This document shows positions 4,826 to 37,472 of a stretch of 64,000 nt of DNA, in pieces (the first letter of the stretch is position 1; the number at the start of each line of letters is the position of its first letter). A program made the translations under genes and the position numbers. The notes beneath the pieces are model-generated. The model was not told the origin of the DNA and searched no databases. It worked only from the letters and a program-made list of their open reading frames with translations. Source of the DNA: an uncultured Candidatus Saccharibacteria bacterium (lineage in GTDB: Bacteria > Patescibacteriota > Minisyncoccia > Phycocordibacterales > JACOZG01); assembly GCA_964361825.1 (NCBI GenBank), contig CAYICB010000001.1:30644-94643 (forward strand), written 5' to 3'.

Positions 4826-4897
4826 GCTCCCGTAGTTCAACGGATAGAACGCAAGATTGCGGATCTTGTAATCGAGGTTCGATTCCTCGCGGGAGCA
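4826..4897 (+). tRNA. tRNA-Arg (anticodon GCG)
   Basis: Hand-folded cloverleaf. Acceptor GCTCCCG/CGGGAGC, D-arm GTTC..GAAC, anticodon stem CAAGA/TCTTG with loop TTGCGGA, and T-arm CGAGG-TTCGATT-CCTCG. No encoded CCA. Confidence 0.75.
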
Positions 4898-6137: not shown

Positions 6138-6345
6138 ACTTTTTGCGAGCGGCGGTGGCGGCCTTGATGACGCCGCGCTTCATGGCCTTATCGATGGCTT
6201 GGTAAGCGGTAGGTAAGAGCTTGGCCGAAGGCGCTTTCACAAATTCTTTGATCGCTTCCTTCATCGCCTTATCGCGGCGCAAGTTAAACACGCGCTTATT
6301 AGCACTAGCGCGGAGAGCCTTCTTGGCTGATTTCGTAATTGGCAT
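6103..6345 (-). CDS. rpsT: 30S ribosomal protein S20
   Basis: MPITKSAKKALRASANKRVFNLRRDKAMKEAIKEF... is a classic S20. Start set at the internal Met of the listed ORF. Confidence 0.85.
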   Translation of the reverse strand: MPITKSAKKALRASANKRVFNLRRDKAMKEAIKEFVKAPSAKLLPTAYQAIDKAMKRGVIKAATAARKKSKLAMLLKKSV

Positions 6346-6403
6346 AGGTGGCAAAAGGTTAACACCGGTGTGCCAAAAAGGCAAGGTCTGTTACACTGGC
6401 CTT

Positions 6404-6976
6404 ATGATCGGTCTCATTAAGGGCAAGGTGGTGGAGAAAACTGAGCGGGCTTTGCTTGTCGATACCGGCGGGCTGGGCTATGAAGTAAATGTTCTACCGG
6501 CGACAAGAAATGGGGCGAAAATTGGCGAGACGGCACAATTCTTTACCTATTTGGCCGTGCGCGAGGATGCGCTGGAGCTCTATGGTTTCGCCGAGAAAAA
6601 GGAGTTGGAATTTTTTAAATTACTGATCTCGATCTCCGGCATTGGGCCGAAGGGCGCGATTGCGGTCTTGGCGATCGCACCCCCAGAAACGCTCGAGAAG
6701 GCTGTGCGCTCGGGCGATACCAATTACCTCACCCGCGTCTCGGGCATAGGGAAGAAGCGCGCGGAGAAAATTGTGCTGGAACTCAAAGACAAACTCGGCT
6801 CGCTCGAAACGGGCGATGCCGATCACAGCTTGCAAGGCGAAGCTGACACGCTCGAAGCCCTGCAATCGCTCGGTTACACCCTCCCCGAGGCCCGCGAAGC
6901 GCTCAAGAAAGTCTCCCCCGACCTCACCGACACCAGTGCCAAAGTGAAAGCGGCCCTGAAAGTACTCGGCAAATAA
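6404..6976 (+). CDS. ruvA: Holliday junction branch migration protein RuvA
   Basis: MIGLIKGKVV...GGLGYEVNV...ISGIGPKGAIAVL (HhH) and C-terminal domain III. Start at the internal ATG at 6404. Confidence 0.85.
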   Translation: MIGLIKGKVVEKTERALLVDTGGLGYEVNVLPATRNGAKIGETAQFFTYLAVREDALELYGFAEKKELEFFKLLISISGIGPKGAIAVLAIAPPETLEKAVRSGDTNYLTRVSGIGKKRAEKIVLELKDKLGSLETGDADHSLQGEADTLEALQSLGYTLPEAREALKKVSPDLTDTSAKVKAALKVLGK

Positions 6977-11377: not shown

Positions 11378-11379
11378 AG

Positions 11380-11452
11380 TCCGCCCGGGGGGAATCGAAC
11401 CCTCGACCGTCTGCTTAAAAGGCAGCTGCTCTACCAACTGAGCTACGGGCGG
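11380..11452 (-). tRNA. tRNA-Lys (anticodon UUU)
   Basis: Reverse complement CCGCCCGTAGCTCAGTTGGTAGAGCAGCTGCCTTTTAAGCAGACGGTCGAGGGTTCGATTCCCCCCGGGCGGA folds as a cloverleaf. Acceptor CCGCCCG/CGGGCGG, anticodon loop CTTTTAA, T-loop TTCGATT. There is one G-A and one A-C mismatch in the stems. Confidence 0.7.
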
Positions 11453-25412: not shown

Positions 25413-27113
25413 ATGGTTGAGTTCCAAGAAGATAAACAAAATCAAAAAATTTCCGAGCTGCACCGGAAAGAAGCTGAAGAACTCGCTCAAATTCTTGCCA
25501 AAAAACACGGCCTCCCCTATCTCGATCTCTCCAATTTACCCATCAATACCGATGCGCTACGTTTAATTTCTGAAAGTGAGGCTCGGCTCGCCCAAGTGGC
25601 CGCCTTCAAGATTTCTGGCAAGCAAGTTTATGTGCTCACTGTGGCTCCCGAGAGCTTAGCGACCAAAAAACTGCTTGAAGAATTGCAGGGCAAAAACTAC
25701 AAACTTGAGGTTTATCTTGGTTCACCCACTAGTCTAGAGCGCGCCTGGAGTCGCTACGGAGAAATTTCGGTTTCGACCAAAACCGAAGCCGGTGTAATCG
25801 ACATTTCTAATGAGGACATCAAACGCTTTGTGACTGAACTCAAAGATTTGCCTTCAATTAAGGCTCTCCTCGACCAAGAGGGAAGCCTCGCGCTCAAAGA
25901 GGGCGGGATTTCGTCTTTATTAGAAATTGTTTTGGCCGGAGGTTTGGTTACCAAAGCTTCCGATATCCACTTTGAGCCAGAAGAGCAAGGAGTGCGCTTG
26001 CGTTATCGTCTTGATGGGGTGCTAAATGATCTCGTTAATTTACCCGAGAAGCTTTACCGTCAAGTTCTTTCGCGCGTGAAGCTGGTTTCCGGCCTAAAAC
26101 TTAATGTGAAGCAAAATGCTCAAGACGGTCGCTTTAGCCTCCGATTGGATCAAGGTGATATTGAAATTAGAACTTCGGTTTTACCGGGGGCTTATGGTGA
26201 ATCAATTGTTTTGCGCTTACTTAATCCAGAAACCCTCACCGTGGGTTTAAATAATTTGGGCATGGAACCTGATCTCTTGGCCCGAGTTGGCGAAGAGATC
26301 AAAAAACCTAATGGTCTCATTTTACTCACCGGACCCACCGGTTCAGGAAAAACCACCACTCTCTACGCTTTCCTCAAAGAAATCAATACCCCCGACAGCA
26401 AAATTATTACCATCGAGGATCCGATTGAATATCATTTGAAAGGGGTTAATCAAACGCAGGTGAATCCAGAGAAAGATTATACTTTCCTGTCTGGTTTGCG
26501 CAGCGCCTTGCGCCAAGATCCCGATATTATTATGGTGGGAGAAATTCGCGATTCAGAAACCGCCGAAATTGCGGTAAATGCCTCGCTCACCGGCCACCTC
26601 GTTTTCTCCACCCTCCACACCAACAATGCCGCCGGCACCATCCCCCGCTTAGTTGATCTGGGAGTAAATCCGAAGGTGCTCGACTCGGCACTTAATATCG
26701 CTCTGGCTCAACGCTTAGTCCGCAAACTTTGCCCTGATTGTCGAAAGCCCGCTTCTCCTAATGCTGAAGAAAAATCTTTAATAGAAAAGGTTTTAGCGGC
26801 CGTAAAACAAAAGCGTCCAGAATTTATCGCTCCCGACCCGACGATTTTTTCCTCAAACAATTGTGCGGCCTGCCATGGCACTGGTTATCGTGGTCGAATT
26901 GGGATCTTTGAGGCAATTATCGTTAATCAAAAAATCGCCGACCTGCTGCTTTCGGGTAATCCTAATGAACGAGAACTGCGCCTCGCGGCTCTGGATCAAA
27001 AACTGTTGGACATGCGCGAAGACGGGGTGATCAAAGTTCTTTCCGGCATCACCTCCTTTGCCGAACTAGCACGAGTAATTGACCTAAATGAAGAAATTCT
27101 TATGGCCACTTGA
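25413..27113 (+). CDS. pilB: type IV pilus assembly ATPase PilB / GspE family
   Basis: N-terminal GspE_N-like domain, Walker A LLTGPTGSGKTTTLYA, Asp box, His box and tetracysteine CPDC...CAACHGTG. Confidence 0.85.
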   Translation: MVEFQEDKQNQKISELHRKEAEELAQILAKKHGLPYLDLSNLPINTDALRLISESEARLAQVAAFKISGKQVYVLTVAPESLATKKLLEELQGKNYKLEVYLGSPTSLERAWSRYGEISVSTKTEAGVIDISNEDIKRFVTELKDLPSIKALLDQEGSLALKEGGISSLLEIVLAGGLVTKASDIHFEPEEQGVRLRYRLDGVLNDLVNLPEKLYRQVLSRVKLVSGLKLNVKQNAQDGRFSLRLDQGDIEIRTSVLPGAYGESIVLRLLNPETLTVGLNNLGMEPDLLARVGEEIKKPNGLILLTGPTGSGKTTTLYAFLKEINTPDSKIITIEDPIEYHLKGVNQTQVNPEKDYTFLSGLRSALRQDPDIIMVGEIRDSETAEIAVNASLTGHLVFSTLHTNNAAGTIPRLVDLGVNPKVLDSALNIALAQRLVRKLCPDCRKPASPNAEEKSLIEKVLAAVKQKRPEFIAPDPTIFSSNNCAACHGTGYRGRIGIFEAIIVNQKIADLLLSGNPNERELRLAALDQKLLDMREDGVIKVLSGITSFAELARVIDLNEEILMAT

Positions 27114-27123
27114 AATATAAAAA

Positions 27124-27297
27124 AATCGAACCTTTTAATCTCCAAGCAATCCTTTCGCTAGTGATATTGAAAGTTAGGTTGGTTATTAAGGATAGTTCCA
27201 GCGGTCTACCGCCGAAGCGGAGAACCAGAACGTCCTTCTAACTAACCCGTTTAAGTCCTAAAAGGACTTAGTTGCTTGGAGATTAAAAGGTTCGATT
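27124..27297. repeat. MITE-like element / long structured hairpin with 26-bp perfect terminal inverted repeats
   Basis: AATCGAACCTTTTAATCTCCAAGCAA at 27124-27149 is the exact reverse complement of 27272-27297. The 122-bp interior has nested hairpins, including CCGC-CGAA-GCGG. Confidence 0.5.
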
Positions 27298-27331
27298 ACC
27301 TACCGCCACACCTTAGCATAAAACAAAACCA

Positions 27332-28333
27332 ATGTCAAGTAATACCAATCCAGACCGCTTTCTCGACAGCGCCCTGCGCCCTTCAGTTTGGGCTGATTAT
27401 GTCGGCCAAGAGAATATCAAAGATAACCTCAAAATACTACTAGGTGCAGCCAAAGAGCGCAACCAACCGCCTGAACACCTCCTGTTTTATGGCCCGCCGG
27501 GCCTAGGCAAGACCACCCTCGCCCACCTCATTGCCAAGGAGCTGGGGGCGCAGATTAAGGTTACCGCTGGCCCCACCATTGAGAAGGTTGGCGACCTAGC
27601 TTCGATCCTAACCAACCTCACTGCCGGTGATATTCTCTTTATTGATGAAATTCATCGGCTCAATAAGACCATTGAAGAGGTGCTTTACCCCGCTATGGAA
27701 TCAGGCACCCTCAATATTATTATTGGCAAGGGCCCGGGGGCGCGAGTGATTCAGCTTGATCTCCCCCCTTTTACCCTCATTGCCGCTACTACCCGCATTG
27801 CCCTCCTTTCTGCCCCGCTCCGTTCCCGCTTTTCTGGTGGCACTTTTCGCCTTGAGTTTTACACTCTCCAAGAAATTGAAGAAATTATTTCTCGTTCGGC
27901 CAGAATTCTAGAGATCCCCATTAGCCAAGAAGCGGCGGCCGAAGTGGCCAAACGCAGCCGTTTTACCCCCAGAATTGCCAACCACCTCCTTAAACGCTCG
28001 CGCGACTTTGCCCAAATTAATAAAACTGATATTGACGCCCGGGTCGTTGCCGAAACTTTAAATTTACTGGGAATTGACGCTCTGGGCTTAACGGCCGCCG
28101 ATCGCCGCATTTTAGAAGCGGTAATCCACAAATTTAATGGCGGACCAGTGGGGCTCGGCACCATTGCCGCCGCCACCTTCGAAGAAGAGGCGACGATTGA
28201 AGAGGTGCACGAGCCTTACTTACTCCAGCTCGGTTTTCTCGAGCGCACTCCCCGTGGCCGCCTCATTACCCGTAAGGCCTATGACCATCTCAAGCTCTCA
28301 TTCCCTAAGAATCGACAAGAAGGGATGTTTTAA
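27332..28333 (+). CDS. ruvB: Holliday junction DNA helicase RuvB
   Basis: LLFYGPPGLGKTTLAHLIA and the AAA+ RuvB layout. Confidence 0.9.
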   Translation: MSSNTNPDRFLDSALRPSVWADYVGQENIKDNLKILLGAAKERNQPPEHLLFYGPPGLGKTTLAHLIAKELGAQIKVTAGPTIEKVGDLASILTNLTAGDILFIDEIHRLNKTIEEVLYPAMESGTLNIIIGKGPGARVIQLDLPPFTLIAATTRIALLSAPLRSRFSGGTFRLEFYTLQEIEEIISRSARILEIPISQEAAAEVAKRSRFTPRIANHLLKRSRDFAQINKTDIDARVVAETLNLLGIDALGLTAADRRILEAVIHKFNGGPVGLGTIAAATFEEEATIEEVHEPYLLQLGFLERTPRGRLITRKAYDHLKLSFPKNRQEGMF

Positions 28334-28346
28334 TTAAGCTAAAGCC

Positions 28347-28901
28347 ATGGCTGGGCATAATAAATGGACGCAAATTAAGCGGCAGAAGGAGGTGGTTGAT
28401 AAAAAAAAGAGCAAGATTTTCTCGATTCTCGCTCGCATCTTAACCCTTGAAGCCAAGCAAGCTAAGGGCGACCGCAATGCTCTGGGTTTAAAAAAGGCGA
28501 TCGAAAAAGCGCGGCTGGCCAATGTGCCAAACGATAATATCGAGCGGGCGATTGCCCGCGGCCTCGGTGGTGAGGGTGGCGAACTAGAAACCGTAGTGTA
28601 TGAGGCTTATGGTCCCGGTGGTACCGCCCTGCTCATTACCGGTATTACCGATAACAAAAACCGTACTTCTCAAGAAATTAAACACCTGCTTACCGAGCAC
28701 GGCGCTAGCCTCGCCCCGCAAGGCTCGGTCACTTGGGCTTTTACAAAAACAAATGAAGGTCTGTCTAATCAACCGGCGGGTTGGCAAGCTAATAATTTGC
28801 TCGATTTATCTGAGGCCGATCAAAGCAAAATTAATTTGCTTCATTTGGCCCTCGAGAATCACGAAGACATCGAACACATTTATGATAATTGCCGGCATTG
28901 A
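28347..28901 (+). CDS. yebC: YebC/PmpR family DNA-binding regulator
   Basis: MAGHNKWTQIKRQK N-terminus. Short at 184 aa. Confidence 0.8.
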   Translation: MAGHNKWTQIKRQKEVVDKKKSKIFSILARILTLEAKQAKGDRNALGLKKAIEKARLANVPNDNIERAIARGLGGEGGELETVVYEAYGPGGTALLITGITDNKNRTSQEIKHLLTEHGASLAPQGSVTWAFTKTNEGLSNQPAGWQANNLLDLSEADQSKINLLHLALENHEDIEHIYDNCRH

Positions 28902-34250: not shown

Positions 34251-35348
34251 CTAACGATTCATGGGCATTACCAAGTAGGAGAAGGAGGGGTCGGCTGCGC
34301 CACGGAAGAGCACGGGTTTGGTTTTGCCATTAAATTTAATTACCACTTCCTGATCGCTCAAAGATTGAAACATTTCGAGCAAATAGCGAACATTGAAGCT
34401 CATTTCTATCGGTTCACCAGTAATCTCGGCACCAAGCCTTGCCGCGCTTTCCCCCACCTCACTATTTTGAGACACAATTTCGACATTTTTATTATTAGGC
34501 TGAACCTTGCAATCAATTTGGTTGAGTTTATTAGCAAAAACATTAACCAGCTTCAGATTAGCGAGCAAATCATCGCGGGTCAAAATTACTTCGGTTTTTG
34601 CCTCTTTAGGCATAATTTGTCGGTAATCAGGATAAACCCCGTCAATTAAACGCGAAATGAAGTAAAAATTATTACTCGTAATCGCTAATTGATTTTTATT
34701 AAAGTTAAGCACTACCTTATCCCCCACATTTTCAAACAAACGAATAATTTCTGACACGTTTTTTGCTGGAATAATCATTTCCAAATTGGATTTTAAACTA
34801 GGCATGATGATTTTTCGTTCAGATAGCCTAAAAGAGTCCGTGGCCACGAAAAAAAGTTGATTTTCTTCACTATACAGATAAACGCTATTAATCTCTGGCT
34901 TAATACTCGAGGTAGCCGAAGAGAAAAAAACCGACTTCAACCCCCCAACCAAGGTTTCGGCCGATATTTCCACATCCTCTGATTCGGGTTGAATTGGTAG
35001 GGAAGGAAAATCACCCACTGGTAAAGCTTTAACTAAAATTGTGTGGTAAACAGAGGAAACCAAAATATTCTCGTTCACCAACTCCAGTTTTATTTTGTCT
35101 TCTTTTAGATTATTGAGGAGTGATATCAGGGTTCCAGCTTTTATTACAACCTGGCCCTCTTTTTCGACCTTAGCGGGGATCTTAATCTCCACTCCAACAT
35201 CAAGATTAGTGGCTCTAATCACTAAAATTTCTCCCATCACTTCAAGTAGTACCCCAGAAAGCACTGGCAAAGAGAGATTTCTACCGGTTAATCTTTCAGC
35301 TAAAGTTAAAGCGTCCCGCAAAATATCTTTCTTACACTCTAATTTCAT
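34251..35348 (-). CDS. dnaN: DNA polymerase III beta sliding clamp
   Basis: Three-domain clamp, 365 aa, directly downstream of dnaA. Confidence 0.9.
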   Translation of the reverse strand: MKLECKKDILRDALTLAERLTGRNLSLPVLSGVLLEVMGEILVIRATNLDVGVEIKIPAKVEKEGQVVIKAGTLISLLNNLKEDKIKLELVNENILVSSVYHTILVKALPVGDFPSLPIQPESEDVEISAETLVGGLKSVFFSSATSSIKPEINSVYLYSEENQLFFVATDSFRLSERKIIMPSLKSNLEMIIPAKNVSEIIRLFENVGDKVVLNFNKNQLAITSNNFYFISRLIDGVYPDYRQIMPKEAKTEVILTRDDLLANLKLVNVFANKLNQIDCKVQPNNKNVEIVSQNSEVGESAARLGAEITGEPIEMSFNVRYLLEMFQSLSDQEVVIKFNGKTKPVLFRGAADPSFSYLVMPMNR

Positions 35349-35553: not shown

Positions 35554-36933
35554 TTATTCACTATATAACCGCCCCCTGATCTGTTCAATTTCTTGTACGA
35601 GATTGGCGTCATTTTTTAAGTCATTTCGAATCTTGTCGTAAGCGTGAATAACTGTGGTATGGTCTCTGCCGCCTAGTTTTTGGCCAATATAAGGGTAAGA
35701 ACTGCTAAAATCTTCTCTTAATAAGTACATTACCACTTGCCGTGGCTTAACCACTTCCTTTTTTCGGGTTTTTTCATACAAAACCTGCTCCTCGATATTG
35801 TAAAATTCAGCCACCACACTGGTTAAACTTTTGACAGAGATAGATTTTTTAGGCTTAATGCTATTTTTTAGCAATACCTTAGCTTCATTAAGGGTAATCC
35901 CCCGCTTTTTTACATAGGCTTGGCAGACCACTGAGTTTAGAGCCCCCTCTAACTCCCTAATATTGTCTTGAACCGAGGAAGCGATGTATTCAAGGATTTC
36001 TTGGTCTAATTCGAACTTAATTGATTGTAGTTTGGCCGTTAAAATTGCCAATCTAGTCTCAAACTCTGGTTTATTGACCCCAATCATCATCCCCCCTTCC
36101 AAGCGGGAACGAACCCGTTCTTCTAGATTAGGGATATGTTTTGGGGCTTTGTCTGAAGAAAAGATCAATTGTTTATTGTTATCTTGAAAATTGTTAAAGA
36201 TATGGAACAGTTCTTCTTGGGTCTTGTCTTTATTGGACAAAAACTGAACATCATCAAGAATCAGAATGTCGTATTTGCGATATTTTTCTTTAAAGGACGG
36301 AATTCTGTTGTTAAGGACAGAATTAACATAATCCAAAGAAAATCTTTCTGAAGTAATGTAGTATCCTTTTTTGTTTGGATGTGTCTTTTTAAAATGATTT
36401 CCTACCGCTTGAATTAAATGGGTTTTTCCTAAGCCGGTTGGTCCATAAATAAATAAGGGGTTATAGGTCGAACCTGGTTGTTTAATTACCGCTTGGGCGG
36501 CCGCATAGGCTAATTCATTAAAGGACCCTACGATAAAGGTGTCAAAGACATATTTGGGATTTAAATTGTCTTCTTTGTTGACGTAAAGGTCATTAAGATT
36601 AAGTTGATTGGTAAAGGGCGGCTTGTCATAGTAGTCTGTCTGATTAGTTTTGTCCTTTTCTTCTGGTTTTTGAATCAAATACTCAATCCCTCTAACCTCT
36701 GGCGATAAGTCGCGGAGAGTTTTGACGATTAGTTTGTGAAATTTGTTGGCTAACCAGTCTTTAGCAAAGGCATTTGGTACGCCCAAGCACACCACGCCAC
36801 CATCTTGTTTAAGAATACAGGTGTTTCGAAACCAAGTGCCAAAATTAGCTTTAGAAATATTGACCTCAATTAACCCTAGAGCGTCAACCCAAAGTTTTTT
36901 GGTATCGATCATCGCGTAAAGTATAGTCTTCAT
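35554..36933 (-). CDS. dnaA: chromosomal replication initiator DnaA
   Basis: AAA+ GPTGLGKTHL and a C-terminal DNA-binding domain. Start set at an internal Met (alternative 36912) because the longest ORF overlaps the rpmH start. Confidence 0.9.
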   Translation of the reverse strand: MKTILYAMIDTKKLWVDALGLIEVNISKANFGTWFRNTCILKQDGGVVCLGVPNAFAKDWLANKFHKLIVKTLRDLSPEVRGIEYLIQKPEEKDKTNQTDYYDKPPFTNQLNLNDLYVNKEDNLNPKYVFDTFIVGSFNELAYAAAQAVIKQPGSTYNPLFIYGPTGLGKTHLIQAVGNHFKKTHPNKKGYYITSERFSLDYVNSVLNNRIPSFKEKYRKYDILILDDVQFLSNKDKTQEELFHIFNNFQDNNKQLIFSSDKAPKHIPNLEERVRSRLEGGMMIGVNKPEFETRLAILTAKLQSIKFELDQEILEYIASSVQDNIRELEGALNSVVCQAYVKKRGITLNEAKVLLKNSIKPKKSISVKSLTSVVAEFYNIEEQVLYEKTRKKEVVKPRQVVMYLLREDFSSSYPYIGQKLGGRDHTTVIHAYDKIRNDLKNDANLVQEIEQIRGRLYSE

Positions 36934-36989
36934 TTTGATAAGAGCAACTTGGTTGCCAACCAAACTTTTTTGAGTTAGGATGTAAGACC

Positions 36990-37124
36990 ATGTCATTCAC
37001 TTATAAACCAAAGAAACGCAAACGCCGAACCACTCACGGTTTTTTGGTCAGACAAAAAAGCGCTACTGGTAGGAAAGTTCTTCGTGCCAGACGCCGCAAA
37101 GGACGCCACAAGCTTTCGGTTTAA
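36990..37124 (+). CDS. rpmH: 50S ribosomal protein L34
   Basis: Translated by hand: [44 protein letters not shown]. Not in the ORF track because it is under 60 aa. Confidence 0.85.
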
Positions 37125-37127
37125 GCA

Positions 37128-37472
37128 ATGTTGCCAGCTAAAAATCGGCTTAACCGCGGCCAAATTAAGGAAATTATGGTTCGGGGGCGGTCTTTTTTTT
37201 CTGATCACCTTACTTTTCGTTATGCTCCATTAGGAACAGGTCAGTTGAGTGGTTTTGCCGTGGTGGTGGCCGCTAAGTGGGCCAAAAAAGCCAACGAACG
37301 AAACAAAATCAAGCGATTGATCAAGGTGGTTTTAAGAAATCTCTTGCCCCAAGTAAAAGCCGGTTGGGGTGGGGTCATTTTTTTGAAAAAAAGCGTAACC
37401 CCGGTAACATTAAGGGGTTTAGAAACTGAAGTGAAGCAATTAATTTATCAAACTCCTTTATTTTATAAATGA
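37128..37472 (+). CDS. rnpA: ribonuclease P protein component
   Basis: MLPAKNRLNRGQIKEIMVRG... Confidence 0.85.
   Translation: MLPAKNRLNRGQIKEIMVRGRSFFSDHLTFRYAPLGTGQLSGFAVVVAAKWAKKANERNKIKRLIKVVLRNLLPQVKAGWGGVIFLKKSVTPVTLRGLETEVKQLIYQTPLFYK

Follow-up and report, generated by a model that had tools for sequence, protein, structure and literature searches.

A candidate minus-strand structured RNA gene between pilB and ruvB in Patescibacteria

We take the closest known systems to the element described here to be the lineage-specific "orphan" structured small RNA (sRNA) genes, of the type represented by the Rfam motifs Bacteroidales-1, raiA and Chloroflexi-1. Such genes have a stand-alone covarying fold, are found in one bacterial lineage in a conserved neighbourhood, and have a function that cannot be deduced from sequence. 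The same description applies to a 174-bp inverted-repeat element between pilB and ruvB in a stretch of 64,000 nucleotides (nt) of contig CAYICB010000001.1, from an uncultured Candidatus Saccharibacteria bacterium; this whole 64-kb stretch is referred to below as the window. The element differs from the orphan sRNA motifs in its closing stem, which is unusually long and partly conserved in sequence, and in its putative promoter, which lies within the beginning of the adjacent gene.

Several other systems invite comparison. 6S RNA (ssrS) is similar in its length of ~180 nt, its long closing stem and its long terminal arm, and the RNA proposed here would likewise be abundant and trans-acting rather than a leader; unlike 6S RNA, it has a tight predicted four-way junction in place of an open central bubble, its side hairpins covary, and it matches no 6S model. 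In the precursors of ribosomal RNA (rRNA) and of the Bacillus subtilis small cytoplasmic RNA (the signal recognition particle RNA), the two ends pair in a long near-perfect duplex of more than 20 bp, which is enough for RNase III. The ends of the present RNA are also predicted to pair in a long near-perfect stem; however, the enclosed RNA is neither rRNA nor signal recognition particle RNA (no Rfam match), and its apical loop is variable, compared to the conserved GNAR loop. Miniature inverted-repeat transposable elements (MITEs) are likewise short units with perfect inverted repeats, a likeness confined to this genome, whereas our element is single-copy, occupies a fixed orthologous site, lacks a target-site duplication and has an interior under RNA-level selection. 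Finally, bacteria have divergent or overlapping promoter pairs and cis-antisense RNAs. As in those arrangements, the promoter of the RNA is located where a protein gene begins and points away from that gene, facing or overlapping a gene-sense promoter in about half of the loci; antisense transcripts are unstructured, in contrast to the predicted product here, a conserved RNA that folds autonomously.

An earlier note on this DNA had described perfect 26-bp terminal inverted repeats and offered three options: a MITE, an RNase III-type processing or attenuator hairpin in a pilB-ruvB transcript, or a structured non-coding RNA. The layout that it gave was largely reproduced. The 26-mer AATCGAACCTTTTAATCTCCAAGCAA (27124-27149) is the exact reverse complement of 27272-27297, with 122 nt between the arms; the left arm begins 10 nt past the pilB stop codon (open reading frame, ORF, 25413-27113); the interior hairpins CCGC-CGAA-GCGG (27209-27220) and GTCC-TAAAA-GGAC (27255-27267) were both found; and the gene names agree with Pfam (MshEN and T2SSE for pilB; RuvB_N, AAA_lid_4 and WHD_RuvB for ruvB). 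The gap between the right arm and the ruvB ATG (27332) is 34 nt, not 35. The perfection of the arms is true in the window and peculiar to this genome, since other members are imperfect: typically 3-5 of the 27 pairs of the stem that they form (P1) are non-Watson-Crick, i.e., G·U or mismatched. The perfect "terminal inverted repeats" are the two strands of an RNA helix and not transposon ends. The third option is borne out by a covarying fold. The note had not recognised a gene on the minus strand, with its own promoter over the ruvB start codon and a terminator-like end toward pilB.

We interpret this element as a stand-alone, trans-acting, protein-binding structured RNA gene of ~185 nt on the minus strand between pilB and ruvB, a reading that we hold to be moderately probable as a whole. 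The Patescibacteria, or Candidate Phyla Radiation (CPR), make up a large share of bacterial diversity and are almost uncultivated. The RNA is probably important to the cell, given its clade-wide presence, a promoter of textbook strength and conservation above that of the neighbouring proteins, and it is now a well-defined object, for which there are a covariance model and a consensus fold as well as an assigned strand and predicted ends.

Conservation, covariation and predicted fold

We took ruvB loci from one genome per GTDB species and scanned them with nhmmer, blastn and an inverted-repeat scan. In the closest relatives among the Patescibacteria, a homologous element was found immediately before ruvB. 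A covariance model (R1) was built from the elements of 13 of these relatives. It detects a single copy, on the sense strand, in all 16 GTDB loci (16/16) with RuvB at least 64% identical, some of them labelled Zambryskibacteria, Kaiserbacteria or Minisyncoccia, and weaker copies in the same position in loci of Sungbacteria, Paceibacterota and Moranbacteria. No R1 match was found in the remaining Patescibacteria loci or in any non-CPR ruvB locus fetched. The RuvB proteins of the element-bearing lineages are 63-84% identical to that of the window. Within the window, matches to the 26-mer with up to three mismatches are limited to the two arms (0/100 shuffles gave any), and a blastn search of the element against the window returned the self-match only.

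Metagenomic contigs were scanned with a degenerate pattern derived from RNA motifs only, which yielded at least 120 loci; the metagenomic counts given here cover the matches listed. Among these, R1 confirms 118 of 120 pattern loci. ruvB is adjacent and divergent to the RNA in 107 of the 118 (tblastn, E < 1e-5), two further loci have a weak match to the RuvB N-terminus at the contig edge, and in nine the upstream sequence is too short for adjacency to be judged; no listed match with enough flank places the RNA away from ruvB. The pattern has no matches (0) in viral contigs. An identical locus is present in two public contigs from Hainich groundwater. Overall, the RNA is present in all members sampled from a large clade of Parcubacteria, and its sequence is better conserved than the surrounding proteins. 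L174 and L196 were rejected as chance pattern matches without the RNA fold; L196 (1417 nt) contains an ORF resembling a MYND zinc finger and is eukaryotic in appearance.

Covariation was counted on 98 distinct sequences aligned to R1, using 46 modelled pairs and 500 shuffles. The fraction of paired cells is 92.7%, compared to 78.4% in the shuffles; double changes occur at 37 of the 46 pairs and compensatory changes in 664 cells, and none of the 500 shuffles reaches any of these measures. As a control, the 3' partners were slid by one column, upon which pairing falls to ~50%. For P4 and for three helices outside the model (P2, P3a and P3d), we used an own-versus-swapped test, in which the half-sites of each sequence are compared to half-sites exchanged between sequences. 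Own half-sites pair better in all four helices (0/500 permutations as good).

Both strands fold with energies far below those of shuffles (z = -10.9 for the plus strand and z = -8.5 for the minus strand), the plus strand folding well because P1 is self-complementary. Four independent measures that are sensitive to strand assign the selected RNA to the minus strand, antisense to both pilB and ruvB. RNAalifold gives the consensus fold an energy of -45.3 kcal/mol on the minus strand versus -16.7 kcal/mol on the plus strand. The model pairs contain, on the minus strand, 550 G·U cells versus 100 A·C cells; A·C cells are would-be G·U pairs of the other strand, so the ratio of 550:100 favours the minus strand. 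The hyper-stable C(UUCG)G loop (CUUCGG) is found 25 times in the RNA sense and 0 times in the reverse sense; the CCGC-CGAA-GCGG hairpin mentioned above reads CCGC-UUCG-GCGG on the minus strand. Finally, R1 scores 140.2 bits on the minus strand of the window (27120-27301) versus 54.3 bits on the plus strand, and ~95-150 bits in the sense orientation versus ~25-56 bits in the antisense orientation across loci; the antisense score comes from the self-complementary P1 stem alone. That the element is an independent structured RNA gene of the minus strand is, in our view, very probable.

No Rfam 15 family (4227 models) matched the element, as the earlier note had suggested checking, nor was there a family match in the 1.5-kb region, the whole window, a 241-nt stretch searched with the most permissive filters, or 15 homologous loci. 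Sub-threshold matches (nuoG, the CRISPR direct repeat DR63, psRNA14 and others) are scattered and mutually inconsistent, and were discarded. ARAGORN made no call of a transfer RNA (tRNA)-like or transfer-messenger RNA at the element, and the only ARAGORN/Rfam genes in the window are tRNA-Arg (4826-4897) and tRNA-Lys (11379-11452). A full-text search of the literature returned no description of such an RNA in Patescibacteria, Parcubacteria or CPR, and nothing on their non-coding RNAs. We regard the element as a new family of stand-alone structured bacterial RNA, outside any named family.

The predicted fold is a four-way junction, in which P1 is the closing stem, P2 and P4 are hairpins and P3 forms a long arm. 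Its parts, in window coordinates, are as follows:

27117..27304, minus strand: predicted primary transcript of ~185 nt, with ends deduced from the promoter and the U tract
27272..27297, minus strand: 5' strand of the closing stem P1 (the right-hand arm of the repeat)
27252..27270, minus strand: P2, a hairpin of 8 bp capped by UUU (3-9 bp across the family), predicted by minimum-free-energy folds and the own-versus-swapped test
27176..27248, minus strand: P3 long arm, consisting of a variable outer P3a, a conserved P3b/P3c core and an apical P3d
27152..27173, minus strand: P4 hairpin, with a conserved CUUU/AAAG base; 8/8 modelled pairs change on both sides
27124..27149, minus strand: 3' strand of P1 (the left-hand arm of the repeat)

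In P1, 23 of 27 modelled pairs change on both sides and 94.2% of cells are paired (98 sequences). The stem has 26 perfect base pairs in the window and 25-33 bp across the family, enough for an RNase III substrate, of which at least 20 bp of near-perfect double-stranded RNA are expected. Its inner half is conserved in sequence (AAUCUCUAAGCAAU / AUUGYUUAGAGAUU); in L014, this part is swapped for a different but complementary sequence. Within P3, AGGACGUUCUGG (27225-27236) pairs with CUGGAACUAUCCU (27189-27201), and the family consensus of this core is AGGAC-GUYYUGG / CUGGnnY-UA-UCCU, in which the AGGA/UCCU helix is invariant, P3c covaries and a conserved C faces UA in an internal loop. Tandem wobbles U82·G124 and G83·U123 (5'-UG/5'-UG) are found in 88 of 98 sequences. 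The tip, P3d, is variable and often capped by UUCG; in the window the cap is C(UUCG)G (27212-27217). The P3-P4 linker UUAA is conserved, and only ~10-15 nucleotides of the junction are unpaired. The loops of all three hairpins vary, and the conserved nucleotides are concentrated in the helices and around the junction, a pattern from which we would expect recognition by protein rather than base pairing through loops.

Promoter, 3' end and the interlock with ruvB

The following features flank the fold:

27310..27338, minus strand: putative RNA promoter, with -35 TTGACA (27333-27338), a 17-nt spacer ending in TATGC (an extended -10 of the TRTG type) and -10 TAAGGT (27310-27315)
27117..27123, minus strand: U7 tract (A7 on the plus strand) directly after P1, together with it resembling an intrinsic terminator
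27332..28333, plus strand: ruvB, encoding a 333-aa RuvB; it begins with ATG TCA A, the reverse complement of the -35 of the RNA
25413..27113, plus strand: pilB (type IV pilus / type II secretion system E, T2SS-E, ATPase), 566 aa, convergent with the RNA gene

Ahead of the RNA, 98 of 100 loci have the pattern TTGAC(A)-N16-18-TAnnnT, and both exceptions are cut by the contig end. The spacer is nearly always 17 nt, and TRTG nearly always precedes the -10 (TG at -15/-14), giving TTGACA-N17-TRTGnTAnnnT; the conserved positions are those important in sigma-70 extended -10 promoters, and the variable ones are hexamer positions 3-5. The pattern was not found in the six Patescibacteria ruvB loci that lack the RNA (L021, L022, L027, L035, L068 and L076). 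If transcription begins ~7 nt past the -10, as we assume, the 5' end would lie near 27303-27304, a few nucleotides before P1. The distance from the -10 to P1 ranges from 3 to 212 nt across loci.

At the other end, P1 and U7 have the layout of an intrinsic terminator, a GC-containing stem with a U run directly after it; the stem encloses 122 nt, so it is not a canonical simple hairpin, and a generic terminator scan missed it because that scan takes loops of 3-8 nt only. In 62 of 100 family members, P1 runs into a U-rich tail, and some others have a separate small terminator further on.

The promoter and ruvB are interlocked. The -35 overlaps the start codon of a ruvB-length ORF in 76 of 98 loci (72 ATG, 2 GTG, 2 TTG), and this overlap (xTG TCA A) explains the invariant Met-Ser N-terminus of RuvB. 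In the remaining 22, wherever the sequence allows judging, the ruvB start lies within ~30 nt of the -35, a few codons up- or downstream, while the hexamer is retained as TTGACA, or as TTGACT/TTGACC in four; retention of the hexamer away from the start codon implies that what is conserved is the promoter rather than the start codon. The interlock is sufficient to explain why the RNA and ruvB never separate. It may be regulatory or a frozen consequence of genome compaction, and the layout is a compact example of two interlocked genes in tiny genomes.

The pilB side is less constant, with a PilB homologue in 57 of 78 loci and another gene in 21, whereas the ruvB side is never replaced. Only the convergent pilB lies downstream on the minus strand, so the RNA is not a cis-regulatory leader. 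In most RNA-less loci fetched, including those of the Patescibacteria L035 and L068, ruvA directly precedes ruvB. The two genes are never neighbours in the RNA-bearing clade, where the ruvA-ruvB operon is split and the RNA holds the position upstream of ruvB. The window has a RuvA homologue at 6404-6847 (plus-strand region 6221-6976; tblastn with Escherichia coli RuvA, E = 2e-27), 20 kb from ruvB; we therefore rejected the idea that the RNA replaces RuvA.

Function and competing explanations

We propose the following sequence of events. A near-consensus sigma-70-type promoter would drive the RNA leftwards, away from ruvB; the transcript would fold into a four-way junction closed by P1; P1 and the U tract would end it and protect its 3' end; RNase III may trim P1 of the minus-strand RNA; and the mature molecule could then act in trans as a stable RNA of the ribonucleoprotein (RNP) type. 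Proteins would probably bind at the conserved inner half of P1, at the junction (UUAA, CUUU/AAAG) and at the P3 core, leaving the three loops free to vary. The arrangement would also tie ruvB expression physically to the activity of the RNA promoter, and the one may be expected to affect the other. In this genome, the 34 nt between P1 and the ruvB ATG hold no recognisable ruvB-sense promoter; ruvB is therefore probably transcribed from farther upstream, antisense through the RNA gene and head-on to its strong promoter.

Several observations weigh against this proposal. The -10 of the window, TAAGGT, fits the consensus at 3 of 6 positions, for which reason a generic promoter scan did not list the minus-strand promoter; its credibility comes from the family-wide pattern. 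In about half of the loci, the promoter is separated from the RNA by a spacer of 35-212 nt; some spacers hold a second RNA-sense -10 and some a hairpin followed by a U-run just before P1 (L009 and L003), so that the conserved promoter may not be the sole or main driver of the RNA everywhere. There is no U tract after P1 in 38 of 100 members. Transcription, both transcript ends and abundance are deduced from sequence, single-copy status is that of the 64-kb window and the fetched loci, and the step to an RNP scaffold is taken from the conservation pattern.

The linkage to ruvB, which is without exception when the other flank has changed in 27% of loci, would also suit an RNA that works chiefly in cis, regulating ruvB, and read-through from pilB into ruvB, by antisense pairing or transcription interference. 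Transcription from the promoter over the ruvB start codon would run into ruvB-sense transcripts, or its product would pair with them, the fold serving mainly to stabilise and terminate the antisense transcript. In every locus that can be judged, the -35 lies on the ruvB start codon or within ~30 nt of it, and the promoter is kept even where a second RNA-sense -10 is closer to the RNA. A recognisable ruvB-sense extended -10 lies between the RNA and ruvB in only 52 of 98 loci, and in the window there is none. The separation of ruvB from ruvA in the clade, with the RNA in the place where ruvA stands in most RNA-less loci fetched, fits the same explanation. However, antisense action needs neither a covarying four-way junction nor invariant internal-loop nucleotides; in the long-spacer loci, a ruvB mRNA that began at the ruvB-sense promoter of the spacer would be clear of the structured part; and the linkage may be passive, since separation would destroy the promoter or the start codon. 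We consider a chiefly cis-acting role rather unlikely. A regulator or processing element of the pilB-ruvB mRNA itself, i.e., a plus-strand ruvB leader (riboswitch or attenuator) or a hairpin for RNase III processing, is very improbable: the element is directly upstream of ruvB in every genome and its plus strand also folds well, but every strand-sensitive measure favours the minus strand, the ruvB start lies anywhere from ~35 to more than 240 nt away, and no U tract follows P1 on the plus strand. The hairpin in a pilB-ruvB transcript that had been suggested at the outset is thus contradicted by a selected structure on the opposite strand.

Among trans-acting roles, a functional analogue of 6S RNA, abundant and binding the RNA polymerase holoenzyme, would agree with the size (~165-185 nt), the long closing stem and opposite arm, and a stand-alone gene with a very strong promoter; the literature searched, including top-ranked papers on these lineages, has no mention of 6S RNA together with the Candidate Phyla Radiation. 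Yet Rfam 6S-type models gave no match at E <= 10 with permissive filters on the 241-nt stretch and the 15 homologous loci, the junction is tight, both side hairpins are under selection with no large open bubble, and a promoter-like single-stranded template region is not evident; this analogy is improbable. Still more improbable is a decoy or titrator of RuvA, RuvB or RuvC, in which P1 and P3 would be the long arms and P2 and P4 the short arms of a four-way junction, with its synthesis wired to ruvB, arising where the ruvA-ruvB operon broke and the RNA took the place of ruvA; it would be comparable to the mimicry of an open promoter by 6S RNA. A MITE, or its domesticated remnant, is the least credible of all. 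It would explain the perfect 26-bp terminal inverted repeats on a 174-bp unit in the window, but the element is single-copy there, each locus has one R1 match, and none of the 118 metagenomic members among the matches listed lies away from ruvB. It occupies the same site across lineages with 63-84% identical RuvB, no empty site is found among the 16 closest relatives, viral contigs hold no copies, and the flanks ...ATATAAAAAAA / element / ACCTACCGCC... (AAAAAAA / ACCTACC) have no target-site duplication. Furthermore, the arms of most members are imperfect in a G·U-specific, strand-asymmetric manner. A single copy in the same placement in all relatives is what the earlier note itself had named as evidence against its MITE option, and present-day mobility of the element is refuted. 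The strand asymmetry of base-pair conservation also led us to reject a DNA cruciform; a 122-nt spacer makes cruciform extrusion unlikely.

Spacers and neighbouring sequences

The spacers between the promoter and P1 vary in content. Terminator-like hairpins with U-runs in the RNA sense occur there in L009 (3852-3880) and L003 (3920-3975), and in the spacers of L007 and L005. In L009, UCCGCGGGAGCGGAUUUUGUUUUU directly precedes P1, and GC-rich hairpins abut P1 in L099, L139 and L126. These hairpins could be attenuators, extra 5' domains or processing sites. The generic promoter scan listed a plus-strand TTGAAA-18-GATAGT inside the RNA, which is unconserved and was set aside.

The longer spacers often hold a ruvB-sense extended -10 (TGCTATAAT) and a second RNA-sense -10. 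One sub-family has two to three 9-mers resembling DnaA boxes (TTATCAACA / GTATCCACA) in a ruvB-RNA spacer of 100-140 nt, where they adjoin the ruvB-sense TGCTATAAT and the second RNA-sense -10 (TAGTAnAAT); the window has none. The loci of this sub-family are:

L112, L094, L100, L119, L163, L097, L113, L117, L138, L168, L093, L152, L099, L143, L009, L139, L158, L126

This arrangement suggests that ruvB or the RNA is under the control of DnaA in the sub-family. We also asked if these motifs mark a replication origin at the RNA, and rejected this for the window, the GC-skew minimum of which lies at dnaA, ~36-38 kb, 10 kb away. The cumulative minimum and a dip in GC content to 0.40 fall at 35554-37468, a region comprising dnaA (35554-36996, minus strand) and a 470-nt gap upstream of it, with dnaN (34251-35348, minus strand) nearby; oriC is probably located at the dnaA region, about 10 kb from the RNA.

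The sequence before the ruvB ATG (27316-27331) is A-rich (GCATAAAACAAAACCA) and contains no purine run like that of a Shine-Dalgarno sequence, as is also the case in other overlap-type loci inspected by eye; ruvB may be translated without a Shine-Dalgarno sequence or from a very short leader. In L138, L130 and L112, a stop codon comes after the "ATGTCAAC" at the -35, then a small hairpin (GTAGAGATTT..AAATCTCACTAC) and then an AGGAG Shine-Dalgarno sequence, and ruvB starts farther downstream.

Public gene calls on 99.9-100% identical DNA (L001 versus L002) differ in the length of pilB (582 versus 566 aa) and yebC (211 versus 184 aa). For pilB, one caller read through the TGA stop codon (27111-27113), and the difference in yebC presumably has the same cause. 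An alternative genetic code was considered for the read-through of the pilB TGA and dismissed, the DNA being identical and the difference a choice of gene caller only. In the standard code, the YebC/TACO1 ORF (28347-28901) encodes 184 aa and overlaps the ruvC ORF.

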